The notes beneath the pieces were generated by a model, which saw only the letters and a program-made list of their open reading frames with translations, ran no database searches and was not told the origin of the DNA. The position numbers and the translations under genes are program-made. 64,000 nt of DNA from Takakia lepidozioides. Lineage: Eukaryota > Plantae > Bryophyta. The DNA is taken from assembly GCA_030704615.1 (NCBI GenBank), contig CM060732.1, positions 71,548,001 to 71,612,000 on the forward strand, in the 5' to 3' direction. Positions 26,705 through 63,288 of the stretch are shown here, piece after piece. The stretch's first letter is position 1. Each line of letters opens with the position of its first letter.

Positions 26705-26740
<36 letters not shown>

Positions 26741-28300
26741 ATCGAGTAGGAGGAGAACGTTGTATATGGCCATAAGCTTTGCTCTGAGAATAGTTGCAGG
26801 GCCAAGGAGTCTGAGGGCCACCCCTCTTCCTGTACCTACGTGATAGATACCGTAGCCTGCATTAGTTTGAGTAAGGGATTCGTCAGTGTAATGGGAGTTT
26901 GCAGGGGGGTATTTTGAGGGGATAGGATTGCTGATAGATGGAGGAATGGGGGGAGGGGGGTAGGTATATTGGTACAATGGGGGATAGGTGGGTGGTGGAT
27001 GATGGACTTTATTTTATGAGTAACGGGTAGTAGATGTTCTAGTTTGTGATAGAAGGTTGTGGGTATGTCAGCGTAGTGGGGGTTTTGGACGTGCATGATG
27101 CGGATTCGGGTGGGTTCTTTTTGCCTGAGGTATTTGGAAAAAGGGGGGGTATGGATATATTTAAGCTGGTTTGGGTCAATTGTGACTATTAGCTTGACCT
27201 CCGCAGGGAGGCGTAGAAGTGGGTGGGAGGTGGTAGGTATGCTTTGATGTGTGAGGATGATGATGGTTGAAGCATAAGAAGAGGAATGTGCAGCAAATTT
27301 GGCCCATTGAAGAGCTTCATGGGAGGTCCAAGTGGGGGTGAGCGAGACCACGGCCTTCCTAGGTATGCTGGGTAGCATTACCAGAGGCCCCGAAGATGCA
27401 ATCTCTATTATGCGGGTTGGCAAAGGTGTCGAGTTCCATAGGGCAGGTTAGTGGGTTGGAGTAGTATGAATGAGTGATCTGAAATGTTTGGATAAGTAAG
27501 GTGAGAATATCTTGGGGAATAGTATGATGTGCGCTTGCTGTTTCTAGTCGCGCAAAGGAACGTGGTTTTTTAGGCGGAGTGTCTTTGAGATAGCGATCGA
27601 TAAGCCAATATACTTCTGTGGCAAAATCTTGTTGAGGTGGAAGTAGCTCATGTGAGTATGTCTTTGGAGCAGAATACTTGCTCCACATAGCCATGTTAAT
27701 CTATTGGTGGGGATAAGCCCTATGTAACAGCCGTTTTGTGCATATACTAGAAAGACGAGGTCCCCTGCGGATTAGAGGTTGGGCATGTTGGATATCTTTG
27801 TCCGGGTTGCATTCAGCTATGCATATGTGTACGTTGGGCCGAGATCGGTTTATAAATGTATCTATTGTCTATATGCTGAATGGGGGTGGCATGTTGTTGG
27901 TGAATATGTGTTAGGTAGTCAATGTTAGTGGTTTTGTAGAACGTGGTGAGAAGGGTGAGATTGTGGTCGGGGTCACATTTATCATATGGGCCAAATAGAT
28001 CATCTTCTATTTGCCATGTATTGTCTTCATCAGGGTAGCCGGCCCACTTGCAATGGTAGTACGTGTCAACGTAGGTGGCCCCAAAGGCGTCAATTGATGT
28101 TTGGGTTTTTATACCTAATATGGCTTCAATGACGTAGGCATCTGGATTGTCAGAGTTAGGCGGGGAGGTAGGGTGAGATATTGTGGGGGATAGTGGAGGA
28201 TGGGTGGGGGTGTCTCGTGTATTGGCTGGGGAGGTGTATGTTAAGGAAGAGTTGTCGGTTGGCAGAATGTGTTGCAGGGCAAGTTCTTGAGGGTGTGTGG
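25255..28300 (-). mobile_element. 5'-truncated non-LTR retrotransposon, Dualen/RandI-like (chromodomain, RNase H, CCHC, restriction-like endonuclease, (CT)n tail); left arm
   Basis: Chromodomain YVIEAILG...YYHCKWAGYPDEDNTWQ (~28140-27995). RNase H HYTD...RAKLMAI...IFTDSLTS...HTGIQGNEEAD. CPLC...DTWPHLLSQC...ITRH, then PDILII...IEFTFCHD...KRQKY...TAGTRGGIH. Ends in a CT dinucleotide tail; many frameshifts. Confidence 0.78.
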
Positions 28301-28319
28301 ATTATCTCTTAATAATGGT

Positions 28320-33553: not shown

Positions 33554-33586
<33 letters not shown>
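28320..33586 (+). mobile_element. Second, inverted copy of the same LINE 3' region (28320-29489 plus ~32965-33586), interrupted by ~3.5 kb of unrelated sequence; right arm
   Basis: 28320-29489 is the reverse complement of ~27063-25926, and ~32965-33586 is the reverse complement of ~25900-25255 including the (CT)n tail. Confidence 0.88.
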
Positions 33587-33588
<2 letters not shown>

Positions 33589-36266
33589 GTGGTTGGACTG
33601 ACTGGTCCCTCCCACAGGTCGATGCTTCTCCCACTTTCGTAGTTAGATCAACACTGGTCAATGAAGGCACTTTAGAATTACCACTCTCTATTGATGGGGT
33701 CATGTATTTTCCTGACCTATGATTATGTCACCAACCGGTGTGGCTACCTGGTTGTGACCATTCTGAGCTACATGAGGAACTATTGATGTTGTTGGCACAT
33801 TGACTACACTCCTGAGTTTTGAAAATCCAAAACATCTATAGTCAGTTTCTCTCCTTGTAGTGTATTCTCATCGAAAAGTACATCTCAACTAGTCGTGATT
33901 TTCCTCTTGATAGGATCCCAGAGTCTATAAGCTTTGCTTGCCTCACAATAACCTACAAACAAGTGCTTGACACTCTTTGGATCAAACTTCTTCCGTAATT
34001 CTTTCGGGACATGCACATATGCCGTACTCCCAAAAATCCTCAAAGTGCGCAATCGATGGTTTTTTCTTGTGTCATTTCTCAAATAGAGTTTTGTTCTCCA
34101 ATGTTCTGGTAGCAGATCGATTTAGTACATACATGGTTGTATGCACTGCTTCTGCCCGGAGATAAACAAGTAACCCATTCGCATACAACATGCTTCTGGC
34201 GCTCTCGACAACTATCCTGTTGTCTCATTCAATATAGCCATTCTGAAGCGGCGTATAGGGAGCTGTGGTCTCATGCTGTATCTCTGGTTGTTGTAAGTAA
34301 TATTGAAAAGATTTTCCCATATACTCTCCACCACGATCAGTTCTAAGAATCTTGATCTCATTACCTGTTTCTGTCTTGACTTGTTTCAGCAAGACCTGAA
34401 ACACAAGAAGACATCTGACTTCTTCTTAATGCAGTAGATAAATCTATAGCCACTGTTATCATCCTTAAACAGTGCATAGTATCTAGACCCTGATGGCGAA
34501 TTGACACTCATAGGACCGCATATGTTCAAATGGAAAAATTCTCTCGATCTCTCGGATCTCTCACGATGTTTTCCTTCAAATGACAGCCTGTGCTATTTTC
34601 CAAACACACAGCCCTCACAGAGACTATCACTCATAGCATCAGTAGTAAGCTTCAATCCTTCTACCATATTCTTTTGATTCATCCTTTATATCGTTGCAAC
34701 ATTTACGTGCCCTAGTCTACAAATGCCAAACCTTCAAATCACTCATCCTTTCTGATGCTAGGTTTGCTTCAGACTCTTTGGTTCTCTCAACCAGTTCCTC
34801 ATCTCTGACATCTGTGTTCCAGTCTGTGACTACAACATTTGCTTGAGTATCATTTGGAGCTATGACCTCAATATCAAGCTTGTAAAGCTTTCTGTCCCTT
34901 CTTCTTTCCATCCCAATGTTTCAGTTTGCAAATATTCTTGCTAGAAGTAGTTGTAAGATTCTTGTCAGCAGCTTGGCCTATGGAAAAAATATTTTTCTTT
35001 ACCTCTGGGACATACAAAACATTCTTGATCGCCCCATGCTTCCATTGGTTGTTAACATGGAAGCGAATCTCAATATCACCAACACCTGCAGTTGTCGATT
35101 GTCAGCCATGTACACTGGCCAGCGCCCTCTGGGTATTTTTCTCATGGTCCTGAATCATTTTTGTTTATCAGTCATATGTTCAGTTGCGCCTCCATCAGTG
35201 AACCAAAATTCCTGATCGCGAACAGTTGAATCAATCGCGGCAAATGCTATACTCTCACTTCTATCAAGAGTTACATTGGCATGACTTCTTGATCCATATG
35301 TGATCCCCGCAGCTTCATCACGTAAGTGCTTTCCACATTCCTTTAACCAACCACAATAGTTACATCTGCAGTTCTTCTTCTTCTCAGCAATGCTGTCAGT
35401 AGATGATCGATGGTTGTAACCATGATCCCTTGAACTTGATCACGTTGGCTTCTTTAGTGCTGCGTGCTTACTGTTCTTCTTGATTTATTTTCCATCCTTC
35501 ATAAAGAATGCGTGACCACCAGTCTCTCCTTCTTGATCTGCATCATAGAGCTTTGCTCTTGCTTCTTCCTTTAACAGCTGAACTACTAGATTATCGATCG
35601 TCTGATTGGTTTCTGGAACGTTGTCCCACGCTGCCAACACATGTTTGTAGGACTGGGGCAAACTACATATGACCTTTGTCATTATTGTTGTCTCTGACGT
35701 TACTTCTCCGAGATCATTCAATTTAGCAGCTAATGACTCGATCTCGCTAATGTGATCAGCTATTTCGTCACCTGCTTTCATTTTGTATTCAAAAAACTCT
35801 TGCTGGAGGACGTGCTTATTCTCCGACACATTTTGTTCATGAGTGGCCAATAATCTCTACCCGAGTCTCTGCCACATCTGATATGCAATAACACAATCAA
35901 TCAGCCTCTGAAGGTTCTCTGATCTACAGATACACAGATGTACATCTTCCCTACATTATTTCCTTTGTCCCAAACTGTCTGTGCAACAAGTAACTCATCA
36001 GCAGAAGCATCTGGGTTTGCTAACGCTGTTGGTCTAACTGCAGATCCATCAATGATTGTCATCAATCCTTTCGCTTCAAACACAATCCTCATCTGGAATT
36101 TCCACAACTGAAAGTTTTCGCCATTGAACTTAGTTATGTGCGTGAAATCTCTTGTATCTACATTCATAGCCATCCTGACTAACTTCTGTAGATTAAACAA
36201 AAACAAGAAAACATAGTAGCATTTTCAATGTAGTGGTTTCAGTACCAAGAGTGTGGGCCCATAACC

Positions 36267-36552
36267 TGTTGACAGAGTTTATAAATCTACACACATCTAC
36301 AATCAAGATTCCAGAGCTAGAGTCCTACAATCTGTGCAGCCAGACATAAGAGAGAGAAACAGTAAGTGAGAGACAAACAAGACGACAATTCTTGATGCTT
36401 GAAAAACAAGATACACGATAGTCACGTTGTTCACGTCTATCTGTATTCTCTCCAGTAACGAGCATTCAACATCAATTTGACCAGCTGTCACTAATTCAAA
36501 ATCAATCTACTCATGATGAAGGTGTGTGGATGTAAATCGTTGCAATCCTACA
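36267..36552 (-). repeat. Copia 5' LTR
   Basis: Direct repeat of 17775-18062, followed by TSD AACCT, with the PBS adjacent at ~36255-36266. Confidence 0.93.
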
Positions 36553-43105: not shown

Positions 43106-43993
43106 ATGGCCGGCGACGAGCAGCCCCCCCCTCCAGTTTCCTCAGGCGGTCCCCCTGATTGTGGCCTCCCCCCCCCCCCCCCCCCGTCTGTTTCTTTGCC
43201 TGATCCGGACGTTGTACCCCCGGCTGCACCTCCGACATTACATCCTCAATCACCTCCACTTTCATCTCCTCCGCCAGCAGTACCACCTCCACCTCCACCT
43301 CCACGTGCATGTGCCCCTCGAACCCCTAGGAGGGGTCGGCTTCGCCCTAGGTTTCCTCCCCTTCGGCTTGGGCGGCCTGAGCCGAATCCTCGCCCCCGAT
43401 GGGAAGCGCATAGGACTATGTTATTGAGGACCGTCCAACCTCGTTGTTAGGGGAATCATCTCGACCCTCCCACCCCCATCCGAGAAAATGTGGAGTTCGA
43501 GTATTGGGGGAGACGGTATGTTGTGAGAGCCGCTACAGACCCTGCTATGGGTCGGGGTTTATTCACGGTCAATGATATTGTGGTTCCTCCTCGGAGAAAC
43601 AACATGGTGGACTTGTTTCTCTACTACGGTCCATACTATACCTCCGCGGAGTTCCGTACATTACGCCTCGAAGCCCCATACATCCTACCCTACATTTTGT
43701 GTGTCAACGGACAGGATGTACGTAGACGGGGGTTGTCTCCCATTGAAATCAGATTTTGTGATGGTGACCCCGACATCTTCGACAATGTTGCTGGGCTAGT
43801 CAATAGTTCTTTTGGTCATCCTAGGAGAACCAATGTAGTATGGGACGAGCGAAGCGATGGGCATGAGAGCTTTTGTGGTCATACGTCAATATACTGTGAG
43901 AGGATGCACATGTTTGTGATGATATGTGCTAGTAGGACTATTAGGGCTGGTAGCGAACTATTTGCATCATACGAGTTTTCCCGGGATGATTGA
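43106..43993 (+). pseudogene. SET-domain (protein lysine methyltransferase-like) gene with Pro-rich N-terminus and one in-frame TAG at 43448
   Basis: MAGDEQPPPP...RC*GNHL... is in frame with ORF 43490-43993, which has MGRGLF (motif I), YYGPY, DGD...NVAGLVNSS (RFxNHS-like) and ASRTIRAGSELFASY (ELxxxY). Confidence 0.72.
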
Positions 43994-44251
43994 GACCTCC
44001 GAATACAGCGTGAGTGGGATGTGTATGATAGAAATAGGGTTCCTTTGAGACAGGGATCGCGTAGAGGGGCATTGTAGATATTCTCATGATGTACTTTGTA
44101 TACATCCGATTAATCGATTGATGTAAAAAAATTTCTTTGTTGCTCGTGTGGGTTGCAACTTTGCATATGTGATCTAAACATACTTGTGCACATGTGGACC
44201 AAATATGAGCTTGAACCAAGTTGATTCAATGGGTCATTCTAGTGTTGAACG

Positions 44252-44947
44252 TGTCGTGCGCATACATATCGCTACACAACTACATCGCTGTCCAAAACCA
44301 CACAACACATGTGCACACCACACACTAGTATACCACTAGTCCACCACTAGTCCAGCCACTAGTCCAACCACTAGGCTACAACTAGTCAGTCACTAGGCTG
44401 CCACTATGCTGCCCACTATGGCAGTCACTAGTCCACACAATGATAAAGAAGAAGAATACAAGCACAAGCTCATGCGAGCTCACAAAGCTGAAGCATAAAC
44501 TCATGCATATATAACCTCATCACTCAAATACAAGTCAAGCCAAGTGCACCCCACGCCATGGGGAATCCACACTATGGCGCCATAGCTAGGCGCGGTGAGG
44601 CTCAACTCGAGAAAGATGAGCCTCCCGCGCTTGCCGTGAAGATAACCACTCCAGGGCCTAAATCTGCCTGGACCCCTGGATTGACACTTGGGCCAATCCC
44701 AAATGTCAATATGTAAAAGCTAGCTGTTTCCTAGCTAGTTTCACACTAGTGGTAAAATAACTTGACAGCTGTCGTGCGCATACATATCGCTACACAACTA
44801 CATCGCTGTCCAAAACCACACAACACATGTGCACACCACACACTAGTATACCACTAGTCCACCACTAGTCCAACCACTAGGCTACAACTAGTCAGTCACT
44901 AGGCTGCCACTATGCTGCCCACTATGGCAGTCACTAGTCCACACAAT
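44252..44947 (-). repeat. 3' repeat block Y-gc-X-Y (sense order)
   Basis: 44252-44441 matches 44770-44947 apart from one 11-bp indel in a CCACTAGT microrepeat. 44441-44767 matches 55480-55806 (327 bp, 3 substitutions seen). Sense polypurine tract AGGGGGGCG at 44956-44948. Confidence 0.95.
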
Positions 44948-45205
44948 CGCCCCCCTAGCTGGTGCTTAGGTCCCTCTAAGTCTAGGTAGCCACACGATGT
45001 GATAGTGACCATAGCCTCACTAAGTCCTCCACCACTATCCCTACTACACTCAAACTCGATAGATCAAGAGGCCGGGTGCAAGAGTTGCCCCATCGTTAGT
45101 CGCCGTCTTGCAACCTGTGAACTTGAGCTTGGGATCTCATGTATTGACTCCTATGAGCTTGGCCTCCCATGTCTTGTTAGCTGCCTCCAGTCATGTCCAC
45201 TGCCA

Positions 45206-48200
45206 CTATCCCAAGCAGTGTGGACACAACCAATCTCTGTCAGGAACCTTCTCAAGAGGTGGTGTCACGCATCCCATATGCCAACCCCTTGAACATCGAT
45301 CACACACCAGCATGGTGGCTGCCCCTTTGGCAGACCCACAGAGCATGCACCTCAAACCTGCAGGTACCACTGCCAAGTTTGGGTCAACTCTGCCATCGAC
45401 ATTGGGAAGGTGACATGGCGCACAATTACGCACATGGTCCTTCCAAGTCATGCCATCCCGACCCTCCAAGATCAGGACCCCTGAGGGCAACACCTCTCGA
45501 ACCCTCATAATAACACGCCCTGCAGTAACATCCAGAGTCGTAAGAGCAGTCTGCTGCAAATAAACATAGTCACCAGGGCTAAACCTCCGAACCCCAGGAC
45601 GATATCCTCCACCACGTATAGTGGCATACCTCAACGTATCACGGTGCTGTGCAATGGCAAGGTTCTCAAAAGCCATGGGCATGACTTTCTTGAACAACTC
45701 TGCACGCTGATTACATGCACGTACCCACACGTCCGGATCGTCAAGGTTAAGGACTTGAGCAGTGTCCCTACGAATGGCTGCAGGCAAATCCGGCTCTCGG
45801 CCAAAGAGAAGGAAATATGGTGAGAAGGAGGCAAGTGATGCTTGTTTGCTGAACCTGTAGCCCATGGCTAACCAAGGAACCTGAAGATCCCAATCTCCTA
45901 GGTGTCCCTTCTGCAAGCCATACTTGCGCAAACCCCTCTTCACCGTCTGAACAACTCTCTCTGCTAAGCCATCGGCCTCAGGATGATCCCGAGAAGTGGT
46001 GCGGTGGTCTATCAAGGCTTTATCACACAAAGCCTGAAACTCCCCCAAGAACTCTCTCCTTTGGTCCGTGAGTACCTCAGCTGGAGCACCAAATCGGCTA
46101 AGCACACGATCCAAGAATGCATACGCAGCCCCCTCACTAGCCTTGTCAGGCAATGGAACCAACTCAATCCACTTGGAGAAGTGCTCCACCATCACCAACA
46201 CATATCTGTGGTGGCGCATAGTCAGTAGCAACGGTCCTGCGAAGTCAAGACTCCACCTGTAGCCCAATCCCATGATTGGTAAAGGATGCAACTGTGGTGT
46301 AGGGGCGTTGAATGAAGCACGCACCCTGTCACACACCATGCACCTAGCCACGAACTGTTGCACCTCTGTATGCATACCACGCCACCAATACTGCCCCTGC
46401 AGTAAACTGTGAGTGCGTCGCACTCCAAAATGCCCCAACTCCTCATGGGCATGCCGCACTAACCGTGCACGCTGTGTGGGGTGAGGCACAATCCTTACCC
46501 GACCATCCTCCCACACTCGAAGTAGGTGTATCCCCTCCCACTTGAACCTCTTGGCTCGTTGCAGGATCCGATCCCTCTCCCTGGCAGTCACAATGGCTGC
46601 TGTGTCTCCCGTGCGGAGGTAGTCCAACACAGCCGAATCCTCATCATCACTAGCCTCAGGGTCCTCAGACACTCCATCTACAGTCATCCCTGTTGTAGGT
46701 CCAATCTGACCTCCCGATGCCAAGATACACAAAAATGCAGATGCGTGCCATCCCGGCACCATCTCCTCGTCCGTCTCACCATGCCACCGAGCTCCAGTGT
46801 CATCCTGCTGGCTCATGCATGGATTGCGACTCAATCCATCCGCATCCCGATTGACCAAACCCGGTCGATGCACAACCTGAAAGTCATACTCCTGGAGTAT
46901 AAGTGCCCACCGTGCAAGCTTCCCCGTAAGCTTGTCTGACTCCATCAACCACTTGAGTGGCTGGTGATCCGTGACAAGGGTGAAAAGATTGCCGTATAGA
47001 TAGCACCTGAAGTGTGCCACGGCCCACACTGCAGCTAAGCACTCTCCCTCATATGAGCTGTACTTAGCCTCTGCAGCGTTGTTCGAGCGGCTAGCGTAAG
47101 CCACTACGAACTCTCTTCCCTCATCATCCACCTGTGTGAGTACCGCTCCAAGCCCCAGCATGCTCCAATCCGTATGCAGCTGAAAGGGACGCCCCCTGAT
47201 AGGTCGTCTCAAGATAGGCGCCGAGGTCAACCTCGCCTTGAGCTCTTGAAAAGCTCGTTCCTGCTCATCTTCCCACTGCCACTCCTGGTCCACCTTGGTC
47301 AGCTTGGTTAGAGCCTTTGCAATGGTACTAAATCCCTTGACAAACCGTCTATAATAGTTTGCCAACCCCATGAAAGCTCGAACTCGGCTCACATCCGTGG
47401 GGCGTGGAATTTGTGCAATGGCCTCTACCTTAGTCTGCTGTACCCCCAATCCTCCAGGATATATCATGTGACCCAGATACTCAATCTGGTTGTGGAAAAA
47501 CTTGCACTTCCCCGGATGCAACTTCAATCCGTGCGCTCTCAAGCGCTCCAATACCACCTGAAGGTGTCTCTCATGCTCCTCCATCGTAACACTAAAGATG
47601 ATGATGTCATCTATGTAGCACCGAGCAAAGTCCACCCCTGCTAGAATCTTATCCATGACTCTCTGAAACTCTGCAGGAGCATTCTTAAGCCCAAATGGTA
47701 AGAACCGCCACTGATATAGGCAATCCTTGCCGTGCTCATTGATCCCCCAGAATGCCGTCTTCTGCTTGTCCGCCTCCTTGATTGGCAACTGGTGATATCC
47801 GGATCGTAAATCCAAAGTGCTAAAGGCCTTAGCATGCCCGATGGCATCAAAGATCTCCTCTGGTGTTGGCATGGCATACTTATCGGACTTGGTCTGACGA
47901 TTTACAGGCCGGTAATCACCGCACATACGTCTCTTCGTCCAATTGCCATAGACATCCTTCTTGGCTGGCATCACTGTGGCTGAAGCATACTCTCCACCAG
48001 AGAGCTCCACCAAACCTGCCTCCCAGAGATCTTGAGTCCTCATCTGAATCAAAGACCTCTCCATGTCAATGTATCTATAGGGTCTCCGAAAGATTGGCGT
48101 GTCAGTGGCCAACTCAATACGGATCTCTTGACCCTTCAGTGCTCCCAAGTCCTTCAAACTGAAGGCAAAGCAATTCCTGTAAGCCCTCAGGAACCGCCGT

Positions 48201-48316
48201 ATACGTCGTCTCTCTCCTCCGGTGACAATGGGTCCAATGTCAGGCTCCCAATTGTCCTCCGTAACTGCAACCTTAAGTCCAGTGGGCTTAGAGGTAGAGG
48301 ACGCGTCCAGTGGTTG
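45206..48316 (-). CDS. Pol: reverse transcriptase, RNase H, integrase, PHD finger (uninterrupted frame)
   Basis: RMCGDYRPVN, LDLRSGYHQ, LPFGLKNAP, YIDD; LHTDWS...YEGECLA...TDHQPL; HEELGH...CMVC, WSLDFAG, LTDQ, DGLAER; C-terminal CMLC...LVCDRC...WHMGC...WLCPHC (C4HC3). The frame is open from the codon after TAG 48319-48317. Confidence 0.96.
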   Translation of the reverse strand, partial: QPLDASSTSKPTGLKVAVTEDNWEPDIGPIVTGGERRRIRRFLRAYRNCFAFSLKDLGALKGQEIRIELATDTPIFRRPYRYIDMERSLIQMRTQDLWEAGLVELSGGEYASATVMPAKKDVYGNWTKRRMCGDYRPVNRQTKSDKYAMPTPEEIFDAIGHAKAFSTLDLRSGYHQLPIKEADKQKTAFWGINEHGKDCLYQWRFLPFGLKNAPAEFQRVMDKILAGVDFARCYIDDIIIFSVTMEEHERHLQVVLERLRAHGLKLHPGKCKFFHNQIEYLGHMIYPGGLGVQQTKVEAIAQIPRPTDVSRVRAFMGLANYYRRFVKGFSTIAKALTKLTKVDQEWQWEDEQERAFQELKARLTSAPILRRPIRGRPFQLHTDWSMLGLGAVLTQVDDEGREFVVAYASRSNNAAEAKYSSYEGECLAAVWAVAHFRCYLYGNLFTLVTDHQPLKWLMESDKLTGKLARWALILQEYDFQVVHRPGLVNRDADGLSRNPCMSQQDDTGARWHGETDEEMVPGWHASAFLCILASGGQIGPTTGMTVDGVSEDPEASDDEDSAVLDYLRTGDTAAIVTARERDRILQRAKRFKWEGIHLLRVWEDGRVRIVPHPTQRARLVRHAHEELGHFGVRRTHSLLQGQYWWRGMHTEVQQFVARCMVCDRVRASFNAPTPQLHPLPIMGLGYRWSLDFAGPLLLTMRHHRYVLVMVEHFSKWIELVPLPDKASEGAAYAFLDRVLSRFGAPAEVLTDQRREFLGEFQALCDKALIDHRTTSRDHPEADGLAERVVQTVKRGLRKYGLQKGHLGDWDLQVPWLAMGYRFSKQASLASFSPYFLLFGREPDLPAAIRRDTAQVLNLDDPDVWVRACNQRAELFKKVMPMAFENLAIAQHRDTLRYATIRGGGYRPGVRRFSPGDYVYLQQTALTTLDVTAGRVIMRVREVLPSGVLILEGRDGMTWKDHVRNCAPCHLPNVDGRVDPNLAVVPAGLRCMLCGSAKGAATMLVCDRCSRGWHMGCVTPPLEKVPDRDWLCPHCLG

Positions 48317-49620
48317 CTATGTTGCAACCTCTTGAGCAGTACTCCCTGCCTGCTCAGTCAATGACAAGGCCTCATCCTGCCCCATCATCTCATCCTTGAG
48401 GACCTCCTCAACCCGAGAAGAATCCCCAACCTCATCCATCACAGCCGCCTTGGCTGCCAACTCCCTCTGAACCTCGAGCACCTCCCACGTGTGCCATGGA
48501 TGCATGCACCCCGTGGTCCTCACATGCTCGCCCCCACTCACTGCCTGTACCGTCTCGGTAGGCAGAGAGACCATTGAGGGAAGTGTACTCCGCACTCTGC
48601 GTTGCTCAGCCAGAGCCAAGCTGATAATCCAGGTCAAGCAATTGAGATCCATTGCTTGCCCCAACACTTGACGACGTGATGCCTCAGAAAGAGACGACAC
48701 CGCCGTGGTACCAGTGGTAAAACCCATTGCCCGCTCACGCTCGTCAGCATTAGGCTCCACTAACTGCTGCAACTGAGCATCCCACAGGAGGCCAGGTCCA
48801 CTATCCCGGAAAGCATGCGATCCTGGGAAGCTGAGCAGTGTAGGTAATGCTGCTCGTGGTTGACCCACCTTGTTGACCACTGCCAAAGGCGAACGGTCAT
48901 CGTGTCTCACACGTTGAGACTGCCTCCCTGTGTCCAGAATGTTATCCACTGTGAGATGTGCTGGCCGCTGCACCCCATCAAATGCACGCTTGAGCAGTGC
49001 GGGTGGCATCAAGTTAGTCCACCATAGCCGTGGACGATGAGCCCGTGACCCCACTGTAGCTGCATCTAGCAACACTGCTGACCCAAGCCACGACCGGACT
49101 TGATGCACACTGGCCATCACCCTGGCCCAAGAATCGCCCATCAGTGGCACATTCTCCAAGATGTATGCTGGAGATACAGCTTGATGAAGCTGCAAGTGGC
49201 GCAAAACCCGCACCATCTCCCAAAACAGACCCGACCTCGAGTCTCGCAATCCATTGCCATGCCCGGCTGATGAATGCCCTTGGCAGGGCCAACCTGCCAC
49301 TACCAGATCAATGGAGCCAACCCGCTCCAAATCCTGCGCCCCCAGCAACGAAATGTCTCCTGGCAAGGCCTGCTGATATCCACGAATTGCAGACACCGAC
49401 AACAACTCAGGGTATCGCTGCACCAACTGAGCAACATGGCGAAGTGAAACGCGTCATGCAGTCTCATCCCTCTCCACATACAGGTAACGCCGAACTCGTA
49501 AACCTGCTTGTAACACAGCAGCCAATCCGGTGCTGATCCCGCCAAACAAGTCCAGAAGACAAATGCCTTCATCCGGATACTGCCACACAATAGGTGTGGT
49601 GTCCAATGGAGACAATTGAG
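48317..49620 (-). CDS. C5-cytosine DNA methyltransferase domain, DNMT3-like, within the polyprotein (one premature TGA at 49454)
   Basis: Motif I LLDLFGGISTGL, II YLYVE, IV DLVVAGWPCQ, SGLFWE, VI YILENV, VIII AHRPRLWWTN, IX ERERAMGF, X RRQVLGQAM, in canonical DNMT3 order. Confidence 0.93.
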
Positions 49621-52270
49621 GTGGTCTGGTGCAATCCCCACACTCTCTCCTCTCCTGACGGTACAAAAGCCTCCACCCAGGCTTGTTGCACCTGTCGATC
49701 AGCATCCTGCTGCAAATCCTTGCTCGTGCCCCACAATGGAGTCTGAGCAACCATGGTAGGCAACTCCGCCATACCATACATGTCATCCTGCTCTCCCGGA
49801 GGTGGTACATCCTCTGAATGACCATTGCCCTCAAGCAACTCTCTAAGCCAACTCACTGCCGCTGTGAATGCTGCTAGTGTCGGCATCTTGCCTCGCTGGG
49901 CAACCGCAACTCCTCCTATGAACGTCACAGGGAGCTGCACACGCCGGCCCTCCCCTGACTGCCATGCAGGCCTATAGGAAGCTGACTCTTCCCAAAAATC
50001 CAGGGTGAAGCCCATGGGGTACAACACTGCCCCACCAACCAGGACATCGTATGAGACTGCGTCTGTCACAATGGCCTTGGCTCGCATCACTGAGCCATCT
50101 GTAGGGTGATCCGGTCGTAGTCTGATAGCCAACTCATGCCGTGTCATGCCCCGACCCTGCTCCGATCCTCCCAGAGACATCTGTATCTGGAAAGGACAAG
50201 GCTCCATATCCGCCTCCGTGAGGCCCAAGCCTGCTATAGCAGCTCTGCCCAGCATCAATGGCTGAGCTCCCGAGTCCAACAAGACCCGCAGTGGCCGGTA
50301 CCTCTTGCCTGCCGGTCCACTCAAACAGAAAATGCCATCCTGGTTGTCTAACATGACAACTCCAGGTGTCACCATGGCGCGCTCAATGGCTGGCCTAGCT
50401 GGCAGCTCCATCAACCTGGCAGCTGCAGCTTGCCATGGCGCCGCCGTGGCAGTCTTGACCCTCAAATCCGAGGATCCATCCGGCACTACACCTCCCACTA
50501 TCTCCGCAGAAGATGAAGTAACCTCCCCACTCTCACAGAGTGTAGCTGCCAGCCTGAACACCTCAGCTGGTCTTATCCCCGGCGTCGCAATCATGGTAGC
50601 CGAGAACAATGGAGCCTGGCACACAGATGTGGCCGCTCCTAACAGCACACTAGCTGCCGTAGCCTTGGCAACACTAGGTAGTGGTGCTACCCGTGTAGCT
50701 CTCCCCAATGGCATAGTAACCTCCGCCTCGGTAACAGTCGGGCGAGAACTAGGTGCCATGGATGGCGTCGACACTGTCTCCGCCAATGTGAATGACTGAG
50801 GAAGCCTAGCCTGACGGCTTGCCTCCCCACGCTGTGGATCCAACTCCACCTCTGCACCTCGTGGCTCAGGAACTCGTGCTGCTCCTCGAGTCACGGCTGC
50901 AGCAGACTCCACCTGCACTAGTGGTAGTGCTGCTCCACACATGAATCCCATGCCTCCCATATCTCCTCCCTCAGGAGCAGGAGGTGGACCATCCGGCCTT
51001 AGAGCCGGTACCACCTGAGCTGTAGCCATGGCAGCGAGCCTCTGCTCTAGCTGCTGAAGCCGCTTGGTCATGCCTTGGTCAACACCCTGACCTCCGCGTC
51101 CTTGGCCACGTTGAGCTTGCCCTTGGCCTGCACCTCGTGGCTGGCCACCTCGTCCTCTCTGGGCTGCTCCACCTCGCCCCCAGCCACCATTGTTCCCTTG
51201 GAACTGGCCTGGGTGCAACTCAGGATGCAAACCATAACACTGGGCCTCTCCATGCCCGTGCTTGCCACAATGCCCACACTGCAACTGTGCAGGCTATGCA
51301 TGTGCCAGCCCTTTGCCTCCCTCTAGGCAATCCTTCTTGGCATGGGGTCCTCCACATGTCTAGCACACCACATCCGCCCGTTGTTGGCCAGCAAATGAAG
51401 GGAGAGACCCCTGCATCTGAGGTCCTCTCTGCCCTTCCCTGAGCTTCACCTGAGCCCCCTTGTTGCCTTGAGCACGTTGAGGTAGTGGTTGGCTAGGAGC
51501 ACCACTACCCCGTGGTGTCTCCTTAGCAAATCCCACCATGACCACTCGTTCCTCCACCATGTTGAGCTCTATCCGCTCTGCCAGCAAAAACACATTTGCT
51601 AAGGTGGGTTGGGCCACTTGTAGGAGAGTTGCATCCTGCACCCTTCTCCTCAGCTCCTTGTCCAATATCCCATACCAGAATTGGACTGCCTGAGCTTCCG
51701 TAACCCCTTGGGTTACATTTATCAAGCGCCTCATGCGAGTGAAAGCTCTCGGTCGGCTTCCGTTGGAACTCTTGCAAGCTCCGCAACTTCTCTGTCCTCA
51801 CCCCTTGGTAGTTCCCTCTCAACTCTTCGAAGAACTCCACAACAGGGTTGAAGGCAGGCACGGGTGCTAGTGCTGGTGCGGTAGTGGCTTGGGTGGACGT
51901 CGTAGCTACTGTACCACCAGTCCCACTGCTACTTGCTGAAGCTGCCGGTGCAGCGGCATGTGTAGCCACTGCCCTCGTGGCTCTAGTGCCCCTAGTGATG
52001 GAGATATAGTCGGGTGACCAGTACATCCTCCACTCCTCGATCTCAACCTCATGCCCCCGCCTGAACTCATGGTAATCATCCATAGGCGGCCCCTCAAGGT
52101 GCTGAAACAGCCCTTTCCATGCCATGAAAGACGTAAATAGTTGTGGATTGCGCATTTGCTGCAAATCACACCAACTATCAAACTCTTGGATAAAATCATC
52201 CAACTCGATGGTGCCCACCGCCCCAGAGTACCTTCGTGGCCCCTTGGTAGCTCCATACATCTCCTCCATT
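49620..52270 (-). pseudogene. Gag (two CCHC knuckles) and aspartic protease, disrupted
   Basis: RYSGAVGTIELDDFIQEFDSWC, knuckles C*TCGGPHAKKDC and CGHCGKHGHGEAQC, protease VLLDSGAQ...YDVLVGG. Frameshifts near 51745 and 49650 and two in-frame TAGs near 51360 and 51294. Confidence 0.88.
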
Positions 52271-52769
52271 GTGTCCCACAACAATGGCAAAGAAACAACT
52301 TGCACCGCCGGTATGAGTCCTCCTGATTCACAATCCGAATCAGAACCTTCCGTGGAAGACACAGGAGGTGAAGGTGGCCTAAACCGTACACCTCGTCTCG
52401 TGTACCCACTAGTATCGCTAGTGCTCGAACCGGCACTGTCCCCAGCAACTAGTGGCACCTCCGTGTTGACACTCAACCGATCATGAACATGTCCCTAACC
52501 CCCTCTCCACAAGGTAACCGGGTAGAGAACCTGTTGCGGCTTATGGTTTGGAATACTAAGTTCCTAACATAGCCTACACCTGTACTTGCATGACCATGGG
52601 AATATCATGAAGATACTCCTCAAACCGCCCTCCACGAGCTTCAAAATTCGGCCTTCCAGACCACATGCCAGTCCTTAGGCAGTCCACCAGTGCCTCCACG
52701 AGTCAGCACAGGCCGTCCACAGGTCAACACGGGCCACCACAGACCAGCACAGGCCCACACAGCTCACTG

Positions 52770-53950
52770 GTCACAGCCGTCACAGTCCCACAGGCCACTG
52801 GGCACAGCCTGTCACAGCCCCAAAGCCTCAGGCACGGCCTGTCACAGCCCCTCACAACGCGTCACAGCCTCAAAGGCCTCAGGCACGGCCCGTCACAGCC
52901 CCTCACAGCCCCTCATAGCCCCAAAGGCCTCAGGCACGGCCCGTCACAGCCCCTCACAGCCCCTCACAGCCTGTCACAGCCCCAAAGGCCTCAGGCACGG
53001 CCTGTCACAGCCCCTCACAACGCGTCACAGCCTCAAAGGCCTCAGGCACGGCCCGTCACAGCCCCTCACAGCCCCTCACAGCCCCAAAGGCCTCAGGCAC
53101 GGCCCGTCACAGCCCCTCACAGCCCGTCACAGCCTCAAAGGCCTCAGGCACGGCCTGTCACAGCCCCTCACAGCCGTCACAGCCTCAAAGGCCTCAGGCA
53201 CGGCCTGTCACAGCCCCTCACAGCCCGTCACAGCCTCAAAGGCCTCAGGCACGGCCTGTCACAGCCCCTCACAGCCCCAAAGGCCTCAGGCACGGCCTAT
53301 CACAGCCCCTCACAGCCCGTCACAGCCCCAAAGGCCATGGGCACGGCCTGTCACAGCCCCTCACAGCCCGTCACAGCCTCAAAGGCCTCAGGCACGGCCT
53401 GTCACAGCCCCTCACAGCCCCTCACAGCCCCAAAGGCCTCAGGCACGGCCCGTCACAGCCCATCACAGCCCAAAGGCCTCAGGCACAGCCCGTCACAGCC
53501 CGTCACAGCCCCAAAGGCCATGGGCACGGCCTGTCACAGCCCCTCACAGCCCGTCACAGCCTCAAAGGCCTCAGGCACGGCCTGTCACAGCCCCTCACAG
53601 CCCGTCACAGCCTCAAAGGCCACTGGGCACAGCCCGTCACAGCCCCACACAGCCCGTCACAGCCCCACAGGGCACAGGGCACAGCCTGTCACAGCCCGTC
53701 ACAGCCCCAAAGGCCACTGGGCACAGCCTGTCACAGCCTGACACAGCCCGTCACAGCCCCACAGGGCACAGGGCACAGCCTGTCACAGCCCATCACAGCC
53801 CATCACAGCCTGTCACAGCCCGTCACAGCCCCACAGGCCACAGGGCACAGCCTGTCACAGCCCATCACAGCCCATCACAGCCTGTCACAGCTTGCGACAG
53901 CCCGTCACAGCCCGTCACAGCTCGCTACAGCCTGTCACAGCCCCACACAT
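52770..53950. repeat. GC-rich minisatellite (TCACAGCCC core) in the Gypsy leader
   Basis: Nested 10-12-bp units (CCCGTCACAG, CCCCTCACAG) combined with AAAGGCCTCAGGCACGG into variable higher-order units. Confidence 0.95.
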
Positions 53951-55479
53951 GGCCGCTCTGGCAGTTTAGCCATTTCTCCAAGGGGTTTAGCCACGCCAAG
54001 CTAGGGTTTGTGTCTCTTGGACTCTAGGCTTCTTTCCACCGAGCTATGGTGGCTGTGAGGAAATCAGCAAGGTATCCTTGCTCTTTCGGCTCCCACACAC
54101 CACCATAGTAGCCCTAAGCCATGAGGTGGTTGCCACAAACCAAGCCTTCTTTCTCACTTAGCCTCCCCAAACACGCCACTAAACTCAATGGCAAACAACC
54201 AAGCCCTGCTGGTTCCCAGCCCTTGTGAGCACTCATTCAAGCACTCTCATTGGCCATAGCATCTGTCTTAGAGCCTATTCCAGCCCTCTACACCTGTTGC
54301 TTCAAGAGTTGTGTTCCCTTCAAGCTTGAAGTTGAAACCCCAACTCACATAGGCCCTACAAGTGCTTTTCTTTCACTCCAAGTGGAAACCAGCCCTAGAC
54401 CTTCCGTTCTAGCTCTCTAAGGCTTGAAAACAAGAGCCTCAATGGGCTGAAGGCATGCTCCATACATGCCCCACTCTCACCATAAGAGAATCAGCTCCTT
54501 TGCTTCATTTCTTGCACCCACAAACCTGAAATTACAAGCTTCAGCAGGCTGAAAGCATGCTCTACATGCCCTACAGGGTAACCAGCCCCTTCCTTCCTTT
54601 CTTGCACTCCCACACCTAAAAGTGCAAGCCTTCACCAGGCTGATAACATGCTCCACACATACATTGCCCTCACATAAGGGAAGTCAGCCCTTCCCTCTTC
54701 CTTGCTTGCTCTCCAAGCTTGAAGATGGAAGCTTCAATGAGCTGAATACATGCTCCACACATGCAACCTCTTCACACAAGAGATATCAGCCCCCTATCTT
54801 GGCTCCTTGGCTCTTTGATGCTCTCTAAGACAAGACTAAGCACTCCACAGCCTTTGCCAAGCTCCTGAAACCCTAAGGCTTACATTTCCAGCCACAAGAC
54901 ACTTCTCTTGTGGTGCAAGAGCTCTTCTTCCAAGCTCTGAAACCCTAGGTGCACATTCCATGGCCTTGCCGCACCTCTTAGCTCCTGTTCCAGCCCTGCT
55001 CTTGCCATGACAAGAGCCCTCTCAATGCTGAAGCTCGAGATTGAAACCCAATCTCACCATACTCCACAAAGTGCATTGATTTGCCCCAAGCCAAATCAAC
55101 CCTTTCGCTTGGTCTTGCAATCCTTCACACAATGGAAGCTCGCATTCCCAGGTCCAGTTCTCAACTTTGCCACCAAAGCCACTATAACCTGCACTTGACT
55201 GGTCCTCTTCCCAATCGTGCTTGCTCATGCATGTACACAATCTGAAACCATCAAGGTGCTCTGGAATTACCTGCAGCATGGTGCTTTCATCTCTGAAGCT
55301 GAAGATCGAATGCCAAGGTCTACCACCTCGTAACCCACATCGCCTCCGCTTCTAACAACCAAGAGCTCCATGGTGCTCCTTGCATAACAACTTGGTTTCT
55401 CTCATTCTCAAGCAAAAACCACAAGTGTTATAACTAACTCGTATCTGGCACTCACAGATACGAGCTGATCTTTCTCGAG

Positions 55480-55806
55480 TGATAAAGAAGAAGAATACAA
55501 GCACAAGCTCATGCGAGCTCACAAAGCTGAAGCATAAACTCATGCATATATAACCTCATCACTCAAATACAAGTCAAGCCAAGTGCACCCCACGCCATGG
55601 GGAATCCACACTACGGCGCCATAGCTAGGCGCGGTGAGGCTCAACTCGAGAAAGATGAGCCTCCCGCGCTTGCCGTGAAGATAACCACTCCAGGGCCTAA
55701 ATCTGTCTGGACCCCTGGATTGACACTTGGGCCAATCCCAAATGTCAATATGTAAAAGCTAACTGTTTCCTAGCTAGTTTCACACTAGTGGTAAAATAAC
55801 TTGACA
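55480..55806 (-). repeat. 5' terminal repeat X of the Gypsy element
   Basis: 327-bp near-identical copy of 44441-44767; sense begins TGTCAAG and ends TTTATCA. Confidence 0.95.
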
Positions 55807-56613
55807 AACGCAGCTACGTATCATAGAGACGGAAAATTGCGTTTTTTTTTTAATTCCATTTTCAAGCCATATGCTTAATGATAGCATATGCAATGTGCGT
55901 GCAAAATTTGGGAGTAAACAAAAGTCATTTGGACCCATAACCAGATTTTGTTCTCTCATTTGCACTCCAAAGTTGAGTTATTTTCAACTTTATGCACTCT
56001 TCATAAAGAGTTTTGCAAAAGTGACCCTAGAAATACACTTATTTTTTTTCCATTTTTTTTTTGTCCAATGTTTTGCATGGATGTAGTGGTGCAAAAGCCC
56101 GATGTCATACAACAGAATAGAGCTAAAAATAAAATCATTACGCCCCTCAAAACCGCAATCATATATTTTCTAAATGCAAATATTTATTTTAAATTCATTT
56201 AAATTCGATTTAATTCAAAATTGGTGCAAGGGTGAGTGCGTCGTTGGGGAGGCAAATGTTTTTTTTTTTTTTTGTTTTTTTGTTTTTTTTTTAAAAAAAA
56301 TTAATTAAAATTTTTTTTCTGTTGGATCTTTGTACAGGTGTTGCACACATATTTAAGCACATGTAAGAAAAAATGAAGCTTGAGCCACATCCGTTTGTTG
56401 GGTGCAATGGCATGAGAGGATTTTTTTTCACATTAATAAACAAAAATTGGTTGATAGGGTGAATGCGTTATTGGGGGGCAAATGATTTTGTTTGGGTTTG
56501 AAACTTTGCATATGTGTATGTTGCGCACATACATGTAATTATTGAATGACATATTTGATGCACACACACATTGAAGGTTGTTGTTTGCATTTCGCTTATA
56601 ATGAAGTGTATGG

Positions 56614-57471: not shown

Positions 57472-57704
57472 GTGAGGACCACGGGGTGTAGACATCCATG
57501 ACACACATGGGAGGTGCTCGAGGTTCAGAGGGAGTTGGCAGCCAAGGCGGCTGTGATGGATGAGGTTGGGGATTCTTCTCGGGTTGAGGAGGTCCTCAAG
57601 GATGAGATGATTGGGCAGGATGAGGCCTTGTCATTGACTGAGCAGGTAGGGAATACTGCTCAAGAGGTTGCAACATAGCAACCACTGGACACGTCCTCTA
57701 CCTC
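57472..57704 (+). mobile_element. 233-bp diverged fragment of the same Gypsy family (DNMT-RT linker)
   Basis: Colinear with the reverse complement of 48291-48523, with scattered substitutions. Confidence 0.93.
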
Positions 57705-58957: not shown

Positions 58958-60632
58958 TTACTCACAGGCAAAGTCGGAGTCCAGCTCCTTGTCGGAAGTC
59001 TCCCCTGTATCAATATCACCGAGAAGGGGCTTCGGAAGGATTTGAGAAGTGTGTCCACCCAAACCCATCAGGAGGTTCTTGTAAATCTCGGCATCCCCTT
59101 CAATCCCAAAGAGATGTTGCGCACTAGCCTTGCAAGCGTGGTACAAAGCATCTGCAGTGGAACAGAATGAAGAAAACAGACATTGAAGACACATTTGGAA
59201 CGGTGGGAAGTTATGAAAGTGCAAGCTCAAACAAAAACCTCATGAAATGTGAATGTTGAAGAGACGAACCTGTGCCCTTTGACAAATCCAGAACTCTAGC
59301 GTCTGTGTAGGTGCAGCACTCCACAATTGTTTGAATGAAAGCCGAGCTCTTCTCCCTCGCCCCTCTCCAAGGAACCCCATTCCCCCTTCGCAAGCACACG
59401 TTGCTATCGACGTAGTTGTGGTGCATGTCATCCGTGGGAGGATCTGTCCTCTCGTCTATGAACTTGCCCCCATGAGTGATGACGAACTCCGGAATGATGG
59501 CCGGAGTCGTAGGTGGATGCACTCGGACGAGACAAACAGTTTCAAACAAACGAGTCTGCGAACAGGACATGCACGAGGAACTAAGAAGCTCCAAAACCAG
59601 GCCCCAACATATGAGTTTGAGCGACCTATACAACTCCATCCAAGAACCAGCAAGAAGAGGAACAAGAAGGCAAATTTACCATCTCTCCCAGACGATCCCC
59701 CTTCGTCAGGTACATGTTGTTCACACAATTCCATGTCTTCACGACCCTCATACCGGAGGCTTTCAAATAGCTGGCAAGTGCACGGCGACAGTGAAGGTCG
59801 ATGGACTGGATGAGCGCCAAAACACCTGCATCGCACAGATATAAATTGCAAAAGGAGAAAACCCACTGCCAATAGCGTTCATCAAAAGCATTCCAACCCG
59901 GACAAGCACCCGATGGAGGGACATCCGGAACTGGCAACCCATCAGGGATGTCCAAGATGATGAGTTCGGCTGCATATGGCTTCTCCTTCCCGTTTACCCA
60001 GGATTTGGTCATTTTAGCCTGCAAACAAGAATACAATGGAATGCTCAAGAGGATTGAAATGATCCATGCCCACAACAGACAAGAAGCAAAAGACAACACG
60101 CACCGTGCCGAGGAACTCCACAATCCTCTCCCACACTGGTGATGGCTTGCCCTTGTAATCAGATTTCTTGGACTCCATCATGGCAAGGAACCTGATGTTG
60201 GCCATCTCCAACCTGGTAGGGCGAATGACCCTCGTGGGATGTTCCACTGCATGGTACGGGTCCTTGGGATCAACCACCCCCTTGTTCTTTCTCCCGGATC
60301 CCTTACCATGCGGTGGAGTCTGCTGGACATGCACCACAGGGCCAGGTTCTGCAACACTTCCCTGCCCACCTACCTGCCCTTGTGCCCCTTCCCCTACCCC
60401 TTCCTTTCCCCACACCACCAGCAACATCTTTTCCCTTTGCATTTCTACCTCTACCCGGGGTATCCTGAGCGGGAGGCTCCTTCTCTGCAAGAGTCCTCAA
60501 ATTTCTATCATGAATGTCGAGGTTGGCTGCTGCGGCGGTGGCTGCTATACGCTCATTCTCTCTCCTCAAAGACACCTCCTGAGCTGGGGTCTCAGAAGGA
60601 GGGCAATCCAAATACCATGGGAGTTTTGACAA
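58958..60632 (-). pseudogene. Spliced beta-class N6-adenine/N4-cytosine DNA methyltransferase-like gene. Exons ~60632-60104 (one frameshift), 60018-59680, 59555-59270, 59151-58958
   Basis: Three phase-consistent GT-AG introns join AELIILDIPDG (motif IV position), W...FCNLYLCDAGVLAL, EKSSAFIQTIVECCTYTDARVLDLSKGT (motifs X-I) and ALYHACKASAQHLFGIEGDAEIY (motif II). This IV-X-I order is that of the N6_N4_Mtase family. Confidence 0.68.
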
Positions 60633-60689
60633 CTATGGGAGTTTTGAGCATGCATACTGGCCCTGTTAGGCCCAATTTCACATAGAAAA

Positions 60690-62990
60690 ACAAGCACGAA
60701 TGGGGCTCAAAACAGTGTGCATTGCCGCACACTGTTTGAGCTTCCAATAAGGGTTGGATTCAACCTGCCAGAGTGGCCCCAGGGGACCGATTTTCAAATC
60801 AAAAGCAATCACATAAGGAAGCTCAAACAGTGTGCGTTGCCGCACACTGTTTGAGCTTCCAATAAAGGTTGGATTCAACCTGCCAAAGTGGCCCTAGGAG
60901 ACCGATTTTCACATCAAAATCAATCACGTAAGGAAGCTTAAACAGTGTGCGTTGCCGCACACTGTTTGAGCTTGCAATAAGGTGTGATTTTAATATGGCA
61001 TAGTGGCCATAAGTGGCCAATTTGAAATAAAAGAAAAGGCAGTGAAGGGGGCTCAAACAGTGTGCGTCGGCGCACACTGTTTGAGCTTCCATTTTGGAGT
61101 CGAATGAACTTGCCAGACTAGCCGTAGGTGCACAATTTCCATATCCATAAACAAGCAAATCAGGGGGCTCAAACTGTGTGCGTTGACGCACACCGTTTGG
61201 GCTGCCAGGTAAGTGTGAATTGAACCTGACAGAGATGACCTTTGTGGTCGATTCTAAAATGCCAGCTGCCAGGTAAGTGTGCATTGACGCTCAAAGAGAT
61301 GCCCTATGTGGCCAATTTTCAGATAAAAAAATTAATGACATGGTGGGCTGGAACAGTGTGCGTTGACGCACACTGTTTGAGCTGCCAGGTAAGTCTGCAT
61401 TGAACCTCAAATACATGCCCTATGTGGCCGATTTTCACGTGAAAAAAACAATGACAAGTTGGCTCAAACAGTGTGCGTTGACACACACTGTTTGAGCTGC
61501 CACGTAAGTGTGTATTGAAACTCAAAGAGATGCCCTATGTGGCCTATTTTCAGATAAAAAAAACAATGACATGGTGGGCTGGAACAGTGTGCATTGACGC
61601 ACACTCTTTGAGCTGCTAGGTAAGTCTGCATTGAACCTCAAATACATGCCCTATGTGGCCGATTTTCACATGAAAAAAACAATGACAAGTTGGGCTCAAA
61701 CAGTGTGCGTTGACGCACACTGTTTGAGCTGCCACGTAAGTGTGCATTGAAGCTCAAATAGATGCCATATGTGGCCGATTTTCAGATTAAAAAAATAATG
61801 ACATGGTGGACTCGAACAGTGTGCGTTGACGCACACTGCTGGAGCTGCCACGTAAGTGTGCATTAAAGCTCAAAGAGATGCCCTATGTGGCCGATTTTCA
61901 AAAAAATAAAATAAAAAATAAATAAAATAAAAAACATGGTTGGCTGGAACAGTGTGCGTTGACGCACACTATTTGAGCTGCCAGGTAAGTCTGCATTGAA
62001 CCTCAAATACATGCCCTATGTGGCCAATTTTCACATGAAAAAAACAATGACAAGTTGGGCTCAAACAGTGTGCGTTGACGCACACTGTTTGAGCTGCCAC
62101 GTAAGTGTGTATTGAAGCTCAAAGAGATGCCCTATGTGGCCGATTATCAGGAAAAAAAAAAAAAAAAAAAAAAAAACATGGATGGCTGCAACAGTGTGCG
62201 TTGACGCACACTGTTTGAGCTGCCACGTAAGTCTGCATTGAACCTCAAATACATGCCCTATGTGGCCGATTTTCACATGAAAAAAATAAAGACATGTTGG
62301 GGTCAAACAGTGTGCGTTGACGCACACTGTTTGAGCTGCCACGTAAGTGTGTATTGAGGCTCAAAGAGATGCCATATGTGGCCGATTTTCATATAAAAAA
62401 AAATAATGACATGGTGGGCTGGAACAGTGTGCGTTGACGCACACTATTTGAGCTGCCAGGTAAGTCTGCATTGAACCTCAAATACATGCCCTATGTGGCC
62501 AATTTTCACATGAAAAAAACAATGACAAGTTGGGCTCAAACAGTGTGCGTTGACGCACACTATTTGAGCTGCCACGTAAGTGTGCATTGAAGCTCAAAGA
62601 GATGCCTTATGTGGCCGATTTTCAGATTAAAAATATAATGACATGGTGGGCTCAAACAGTGTGCATTGACGCACGCTGCTGGAGCTACCACGTAAGTGTG
62701 CATTGAAGCTCAAAGAGATGCCCTATGTGGCCGATTTTCACATGAAAAAAATAATGACAAGGTGGGCTCAAATAGTGTGCGTTGACGCACACTGCTGGAG
62801 CTGCCAGGTAAGTGTGCATTGAACAAGAAAGAGATGCCCTATGAGGCCGATTTCCAAATGAAAAAAAGAATGACAAGGTGGGCTCAAACAGTGTGCGTTG
62901 ACGCACACTGCTAGAGCTGCCAGGTAAGTGTGCATTGAAACTTAAAGAGATACCCTATGAGGCTGATTCCAAATGAAAAAAACAATGACA
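60690..62990. repeat. About 116-bp tandem repeat, ~19 units, each with a 34-bp palindrome
   Basis: CTCAAACAGTGTGCGT-TG-ACGCACACTGTTTGAG recurs (for example near 60707, 60822, 61463, 61695, 62060, 62884), and the intervening sequence is also repeated. Confidence 0.96.
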
Positions 62991-63288
62991 AGATGCACAA
63001 CACAACCTCATTACATTCGGGGTCTTCCTGTTTACTGCTCTCTAGGGTTGTTGTCGTCTTTCCATAATTGATGGTTTCATGTCATGTTTAGGGTTTGTTT
63101 TTCATCCAAATACAACACGGCTTCTTGTGGCTTCTTGTCACCCTAAACAGTTTTTCTGATTGGTGTCTCTCAGTGTGGTTGTCTGCGAAGTTCGGTGCAT
63201 GTCATTCCTACATCCTTTGCAGGCATCGCCCACAGTCTTTGGGTTAGTGCTAACCTTATTGACCTCAGTTTGGTCAGTGGAGGAAAAC

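Follow-up and report, generated by a model that had tools for sequence, protein, structure and literature searches.

A primer-binding-position site complementary to the element's own terminal repeat suggests Tf1-type self-priming in a Ty3/Gypsy element of Takakia lepidozioides with split direct repeats

In our study, a Ty3/Gypsy element of the moss Takakia lepidozioides was found to contain, at the position of the primer-binding site (PBS), a site complementary to the element's own terminal repeat. It is likely that the element primes its reverse transcription as Tf1 does, with the first 11–12 bases of its own RNA. The element was present on the minus strand of the window, i.e., the whole stretch of 64,000 nucleotides analysed (contig CM060732.1, positions 71,548,001 to 71,612,000).

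The element was 11,555 bp long (44252–55806) and contained TG…CA ends and split direct repeats of the form X-internal-Y-X-Y, the full order being X-PBS-internal-PPT-Y-GC-X-Y. Features are on the minus strand unless stated otherwise. The 5′ repeat X1 (55480–55806, 327 bp) was predicted to hold a U3 part, R and U5. The 5′ leader contained a tandem array of 10/51-bp units (52741–53907, no strand assigned), followed by gag-like and protease-like frames split into several ORFs (49569–52494; weak Asp_protease_2 match, E 0.055), a C5 cytosine methyltransferase (DNMT) frame (48317–49453; PF00145, E 5e-13) and RT, RNase H, DDE integrase and a PHD finger (45206–48316). The polypurine tract (PPT) AGGGGGGCGA (44947–44956), with similar tracts in related families, adjoined repeat Y1 (44770–44946), followed by the Y|X junction palindrome GACA-GC-TGTC, a predicted internal integrase site (44764–44773), the 3′ repeat X2 (44441–44767, 99.1% identical to X1) and repeat Y2 (44252–44440), which forms the 3′ end of the element. 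The TSD AACG, given on the plus strand, was present on the upstream (55807–55810) and downstream (44248–44251) sides. Empty-site contigs ran from 44251 into sequence like 55811 onward; the target site was itself repetitive, with many contigs over the flanks 55807–56100 and 44150–44251.

The order PR-RT-RH-IN with a DDE integrase was that of Ty3/Gypsy elements, the protease match being weak, and the best match of a solved structure to the pol was Ty3 Gag-Pol (E 2e-94). The TG…CA ends, the 4-bp TSD and the PPT also agreed with Ty3/Gypsy, whereas two equal terminal LTRs were replaced by the layout X…Y-X-Y. The coding frames were disrupted by one stop and by frameshifts. Neither a tyrosine recombinase nor a chromodomain was matched in 21 of the 24 element frames of at least 100 aa, the domain scan covering all but the three frames over the tandem array. 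Rfam gave no match at E ≤ 1 over 43500–56500, neither a hammerhead nor any other known RNA family. The named relatives nearest to the pol were from liverworts, Klebsormidium and Closterium. In the sister family, an exact 4-bp TSD was found in seven of the 10 complete copies; one further copy matched at 3/4 positions, one was ambiguous and one had none.

The sense strand at 55480–55468 read ACTCGAGAAAGAT, the first A of which is the last base of the repeat (…TCA). The PBS proper, CTCGAGAAAGAT (55468–55479, 12 nt), adjoined the end of X and did not start with TGG, as the first-pass annotation had claimed. The same annotation had reported an exact 13-nt complement in X, extended to 16/17; the complement was recovered at 55644–55656 and at 44605–44617, and the extended match held for the window copy. 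The predicted self-primer ATCTTTCTCGAG (55645–55656) likely represents the first 12 nt of the RNA, the start site itself being inferred. The expected count of the 13-mer in X by chance was 4.6e-6, and none of 498 internal 21-nt windows contained a complement in X longer than 9 nt. The mismatching C at 55467 (PBS+13) was a minority base: the matching base, G, made up 75% of the contig depth in run X1 (353,663 of 472,907 depth units) and 56% in run X6 (347 of 618), so most copies match 17/17. In the contigs of the sequencing runs, no variant was listed at 5% in 55468–55479 or 55645–55656, and none at 2% in 44605–44617.

The relatives examined comprised 80 of 144 confirmed metagenome loci and 7 further loci (87 in total); a search of viral contigs gave no relatives and then one distant locus. 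Both sites were present in four families, namely that of the window, the sister family (L019 and others), L082 and L032, where the exact complement between the PBS region and the family's own X was 13, 17, 13 and 16 nt long, respectively. The integrase cores of L082 and L032 were 95% identical, so the independent lineages number three and not four; identity among these three was 65–78%. MAFFT did not align the X repeats of different families in register, and the pairs were therefore compared by anchoring at the repeat end. With this anchoring, 7 of the 11 primer columns differed among the four families and all pairs were kept. Comparing the PBS of one family with the X of another gave only 6–9 nt in 11 of 12 cases and 11 nt in the remaining one. 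The complementarity was thus retained through compensated changes, which was the covariation that the first-pass annotation had proposed to look for. One 11-nt stretch near the end of the sister family X (L019, about 1995–2005) complements the window PBS, by chance or as a relic.

A PBS that changes in step with its own repeat is unlike what is expected for a host primer, and at the level of sequence comparison the compensated change of PBS and X argues against a tRNA primer. Priming by a host tRNA half or an internal tRNA fragment, with the match in X as a by-product, has a precedent in the half-tRNA priming described for plant copia lineages in the relevant part of PMC6317226. It is extremely improbable here: the site lacks TGG and so does not correspond to a tRNA 3′ end, and a host RNA would hold the PBS constant rather than let it vary at 7 of 11 positions together with X. 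No tRNA gene was found by ARAGORN in the 64-kb window or in 40 of the 87 loci.

In the sister family, 14 distinct 5′ ends were compared: positions 1–11 of the PBS contained the majority base in 11–14 of 14, positions 12–14 were variable (position 12: C in 8, A in 3 and T in 3) and positions 15–18 were again conserved, as a T run. A non-matching C just past the predicted primer was present in the window, in L082 and in the sister family and absent in L032. If RT copied the cap G into cDNA, this C would be explained, and the C at PBS+13 is a possible trace of such copying; the open-access literature searched contained no passage on cap copying by RT.

In five of five related loci, the complementary site lay 29 or 31 nt downstream of the first base of a TATA. 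Plant transcription usually starts about 30 nt from the TATA, so the complementary site is likely the 5′ end of the RNA. The window family contained no canonical TATA at that position, where the non-canonical TTATCTT (55678–55684) was found. Under Tf1-type self-priming, transcription would start at about 55656, the 5′ end of the RNA would fold onto the PBS 165 nt downstream, and cleavage by RNase H following the G at 55645 would leave a free 3′-OH that points into U5. For an RNA starting at the site, the predicted mean primer:PBS pairing was 0.69 in the window, 0.98 in the L019 family, 0.91 in L082 and 0.82 in L032. With 30 nt of upstream sequence added, it was 0.0–0.01 in three families and 0.996 in L019, and L066 was predicted to pair better with the upstream arm (0.81 vs 0.28–0.50); these nested predictions are blind to kissing loops. 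The self-priming put forward in the first-pass annotation is hence supported by the compensated changes, the TATA spacing of the relatives and the predicted primer:PBS pairing.

The predicted start lay within a 14-bp hairpin (55629–55669, with a second copy at 44590–44630), the 5′ arm of which is upstream of the start. Its stem was as first described, with the 13-nt complement said to form the loop; the loop contained only 12 nt (55644–55655), and the 13th base of the complement, 55656, was the first base of the stem arm. The hairpin folded at −29.3 kcal/mol, and none of 281 element windows of 41 nt folded as well. A stem across the predicted start was present in the window, L030, L082, L083, L032 and the sister family, with differing sequences; the primer start of L030 and L083 was assigned by homology, the PBS of neither being seen, and the second element of L080 contained only a weak stem at a guessed position. 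The primer-like site formed the loop only in the window and L030; most of it lay in the stem in L082, L032 and the L019 family.

These stems bear on the alternative that the primer comes from a longer RNA holding the whole hairpin, either as the 3′ X copy or through a start further upstream. Pairing would then begin between the loop and the PBS, followed by melting of the stem and release of the 3′-OH by RNase H, which amounts to circularisation by loop-PBS pairing. The strongest support for this version comes from complementarity that continues upstream beyond the predicted start: it runs into the upstream arm for 4 nt in most copies of the window family, giving their 17/17 match, for 3 nt in L032 and for about 13 nt, including G-U pairs, in the L019 family, where a 24-bp duplex results. 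Upstream minor starts or DNA snap-back could also be the sources of this arm complementarity (3–13 nt). The opening of the window loop costs only 4.8 kcal/mol, the window family has no TATA, and the copying of a long primer would yield the reverse X copy of the L077/L079 insertion described below. Snap-back of the plus-strand DNA end would, however, account for that copy just as well, the TATA spacing of the five relatives places the start inside the hairpin, and in three of the four families the site is mostly stem. The nested fold with the arm gave 0.0 pairing in the window, which carries little weight since kissing loops were not modelled; to our knowledge, a helix of 12–13 bp cannot form within a closed 12-nt loop on geometrical grounds. 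We regard the longer-RNA route as unlikely, and the RNA circularisation suggested in the first-pass annotation was poorly supported, an open loop being present only in the window family and L030.

With self-priming from the RNA 5′ end, the hairpin needs an arm upstream of the start and would therefore form only in the 3′ X copy of the transcript. A GCTTGAC motif (55573–55579) was present in six of six loci tested and was predicted to pair with the bases just past the primer; in all six, the right arm of the hairpin can pair with this motif 77–151 nt downstream. In the 5′ X copy, the predicted partner of the right arm is instead the conserved GCTTGAC, pointing to a possible switch from one X copy to the other. 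Competition of the 3′ X copy for the PBS may be prevented by the hairpin, a role that the folding energies partly support. Net PBS binding with the upstream arm was −12.2 kcal/mol in the window and −6.9 to −11.4 kcal/mol for the extended duplex of the sister family, whereas it was +0.5 kcal/mol in L082 and +2.1 (core) or −2.7 kcal/mol (extended) in L032; on these values the guard role fails energetically in the window and the sister family and holds in L082 and L032. The palindrome CTCGAG was rejected as a conserved dimer signal, as it was absent in the other three families.

The 10-bp hairpin reported next to the PBS was also found, on its 3′ side (55438–55464), at −13.3 kcal/mol; it was weaker than the first, two of 427 windows folding as well. 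It was family-specific and was rejected as a lineage-wide feature, the corresponding values being −2.3 kcal/mol in L082 and −2.2 kcal/mol in L032, with a different, later hairpin in L019. Both 55447 and 55455, which are paired positions, contained a variant, at 13% and 10% of the depth in run X1, respectively; this may hint at selection within the family.

The PBS and the PPT also define the repeat boundaries. Y started at the end of the PPT and X stopped at the start of the PBS. Read in the usual way, these boundaries make Y+X the LTR, and at the X|Y joint the right end of the cDNA is fused to its left end. The link between priming and split repeats proposed in the first-pass annotation is supported for the boundaries, the X|Y joint being set by the PBS and the PPT, but not as a causal relation. 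Among 12 distinct insertions of the sister family, the joint was clean in 10, and the other two lacked the last A and contained PPT-like bases. The Y|X junction read GACA-GC/GT-TGTC in nine of nine sequences scanned, down to 53% integrase identity, and the ends of the integrated element were the two halves of this palindrome.

One possible reading, which we hold only tentatively, is that the true LTR is Y+X, that the DDE integrase ignores the cDNA ends, which are joined as X|Y, and that insertion takes place through the internal palindromic CA-GC-TG. With insertion from a circle junction, the split direct repeats would be a permuted LTR-LTR circle. An inward-moved integrase site may be an answer to cDNA ends spoiled by the self-primer. 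A simple circle predicts X-Y-X-internal-Y copies; Y was found upstream of X in none of the 14 distinct sister 5′ ends, which is evidence against a simple circle. The circle-junction reading is thus plausible but incomplete.

The sister family had two main forms of 3′ end, both of them found with TSDs: Y-X-Y at 20 loci, of which 12 were distinct, and Y alone at 26, of which 23 were distinct; five loci fell under neither. Complete X-internal-Y copies were found in L012, L022, L048, L061, L064 and L066, most with a 4-bp TSD; these copies, which have no 3′ R, may come from one-LTR circles or from Y-Y recombination. L082 and L032 contained PPT-Y-X-PBS in one run and were treated as collapsed assemblies, with no proof of circles. 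A one-off rearrangement as the origin of the layout was rejected, as the layout recurred in 12 distinct sister insertions, in L030, in L083 and in the second element of L080.

One insertion, represented by both L077 (3361–3878) and L079 (1412–1929), ended in PPT-Y-X with the first 180 nt of X added behind it in reverse. This reverse copy began exactly at the PBS position and ran from the primer to the start of X, so the start of X is able to act as a right end; the copy has the look of a relic left by snap-back or by long-primer copying.

That extension can start at the site also bears on the alternative that the match is used for DNA-DNA annealing as the cDNA is completed, like DIRS's internal complementary region (ICR), with priming elsewhere. 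The repeat layout is indeed that of the PAT/Ngaro elements as outlined in PMC4157794. The DIRS ICR, as far as PMC7192593 describes it, is 88 bp long and complementary to the outer ends, whereas the site here falls exactly at the PBS position and matches the middle of X over 12 nt. Besides having a PPT, a DDE integrase and a 4-bp TSD, the element gave no tyrosine recombinase match in the 21 frames scanned. Annealing of this kind is very unlikely to explain the match. The analogy with DIRS drawn in the earlier note did not fit priming either, as the ICR has no role in initiating reverse transcription according to the same section of PMC7192593.

Other repeats were also present in the window. A 233-bp inverted copy (57472–57704, 96%) of the DNMT/RT boundary (48291–48523) was found outside the element. 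A long degenerate inverted repeat (25278–33558, 83–94%) contained weak RNase H frames on both arms. A 267-bp repeat was present in two copies (17768–18034 and 36260–36526; 93% alike, 18.5 kb apart), and no pol relative of the element's lineage was found between them. Tandem arrays were located at 60571–63061 (about 116 bp, with an internal palindrome) and 20687–22436 (about 181 bp).

Self-priming and split repeats are each known; weak evidence, from the open-access literature searched, suggests that their combination is unreported. That literature contained one paper naming KnitGypsy and nothing linking the lineage to self-priming or explaining its repeats. If true, the finding would extend self-priming to a Gypsy lineage from bryophytes and algae that carries a PHD finger and a DNMT, perhaps with a separate origin. 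It offers a mechanistic handle on Gypsy elements with DIRS-like repeats, no earlier one having been found in the literature searched. The location of the PBS and PPT makes it a testable question how a DDE integrase inserts a molecule whose ends differ from the cDNA ends, and the answer may bear on the origin of split direct repeats in other retrotransposons.

The nearest described system is KnitGypsy-Dnmt3 of Klebsormidium nitens, whose pol combines the Gypsy domains with that of a cytosine methyltransferase (de Mendoza et al. 2018, PMC5890265, in the portion describing it) and whose repeats are DIRS-like, A-coding-B-A-B, according to the legend of its Fig. 4c. A split layout in Gypsy was therefore already known. 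By that paper's description, our element shares its domain set and split repeats, with both a C5 DNMT in pol and A-coding-B-A-B repeats; the portion concerned is silent on the PBS, priming, TSD and origin of the layout. Proteins of K. nitens matched the element pol (P0056, 42% identity, E 3e-238). In a quick RT-RNase H tree of 39 rows, which contained no Tf1, sushi or Tcn1 references and in which L051 was an unreliable long branch, P0056 (not labelled KnitGypsy) and the window fell in a 19-row group (SH-aLRT 94), and a branch of 99 parted the lineage from plant chromovirus-like rows. A more distant relative, P0118, contained a Dam adenine methyltransferase and a PHD finger in place of the C5 DNMT. 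Elements of the lineage were also found in contigs filed as bacterial genome assemblies (L082–L086), most likely as contamination.

The Y|X junction resembles that of IS3/IS911 circles, where TG/CA ends are abutted over a 2-bp spacer and can be opened by a DDE enzyme. By analogy only, the junction here would be copied from RNA inside the LTR and not made by a transposase. PAT, Ngaro and VIPER share the A1…B1-A2-B2 split direct repeats with our element (PMC4157794 and PMC7192593, as far as their descriptions go); these use a tyrosine recombinase, which accompanies DIRS-type split repeats in the account of PMC4157794, whereas our element has a DDE integrase, TG…CA ends, a 4-bp TSD, a PPT and a PBS-position site. 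Phygy, a non-chromovirus Gypsy of mosses, is described in PMC6317226 with a tRNA-Trp PBS and an NCGN target site, a combination that does not fit the element. The TAR copia lineage (Houba, Osr-1), in the same partial account, is predicted to self-prime in plants outside Tf1/sushi, so the trait can arise more than once; unlike our element, it belongs to the Copia superfamily and has ordinary LTRs.

In Tf1, the 11 nt at the RNA 5′ end anneal to the PBS and are cleaved by RNase H (passages of PMC7175516 and bioRxiv 10.1101/2022.12.06.519325). As far as these sources and PMC6317226 describe Tf1/sushi elements, including the plant Tcn1, the element shares with them a PBS flush with the 5′ repeat, the lack of a tRNA site, and a PBS complementary to 11–12 nt within the repeat at the predicted RNA start; for SM-Tcn1, the relevant text of PMC2864245 gives no evidence of self-priming. 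In comparison with the Tf1 pretzel, the central duplex was predicted, and a conserved second helix joined two LTR segments, neither being PBS-adjacent. Unlike Tf1/sushi elements, our element contains a PHD finger and a DNMT, has no chromodomain match and carries split repeats that are not equal LTRs, and its lineage has a conserved hairpin across the predicted start. Since no chromodomain was matched and the tree contained no Tf1/sushi references, the element is not filed as a Tf1/sushi member, yet it likely works like Tf1.
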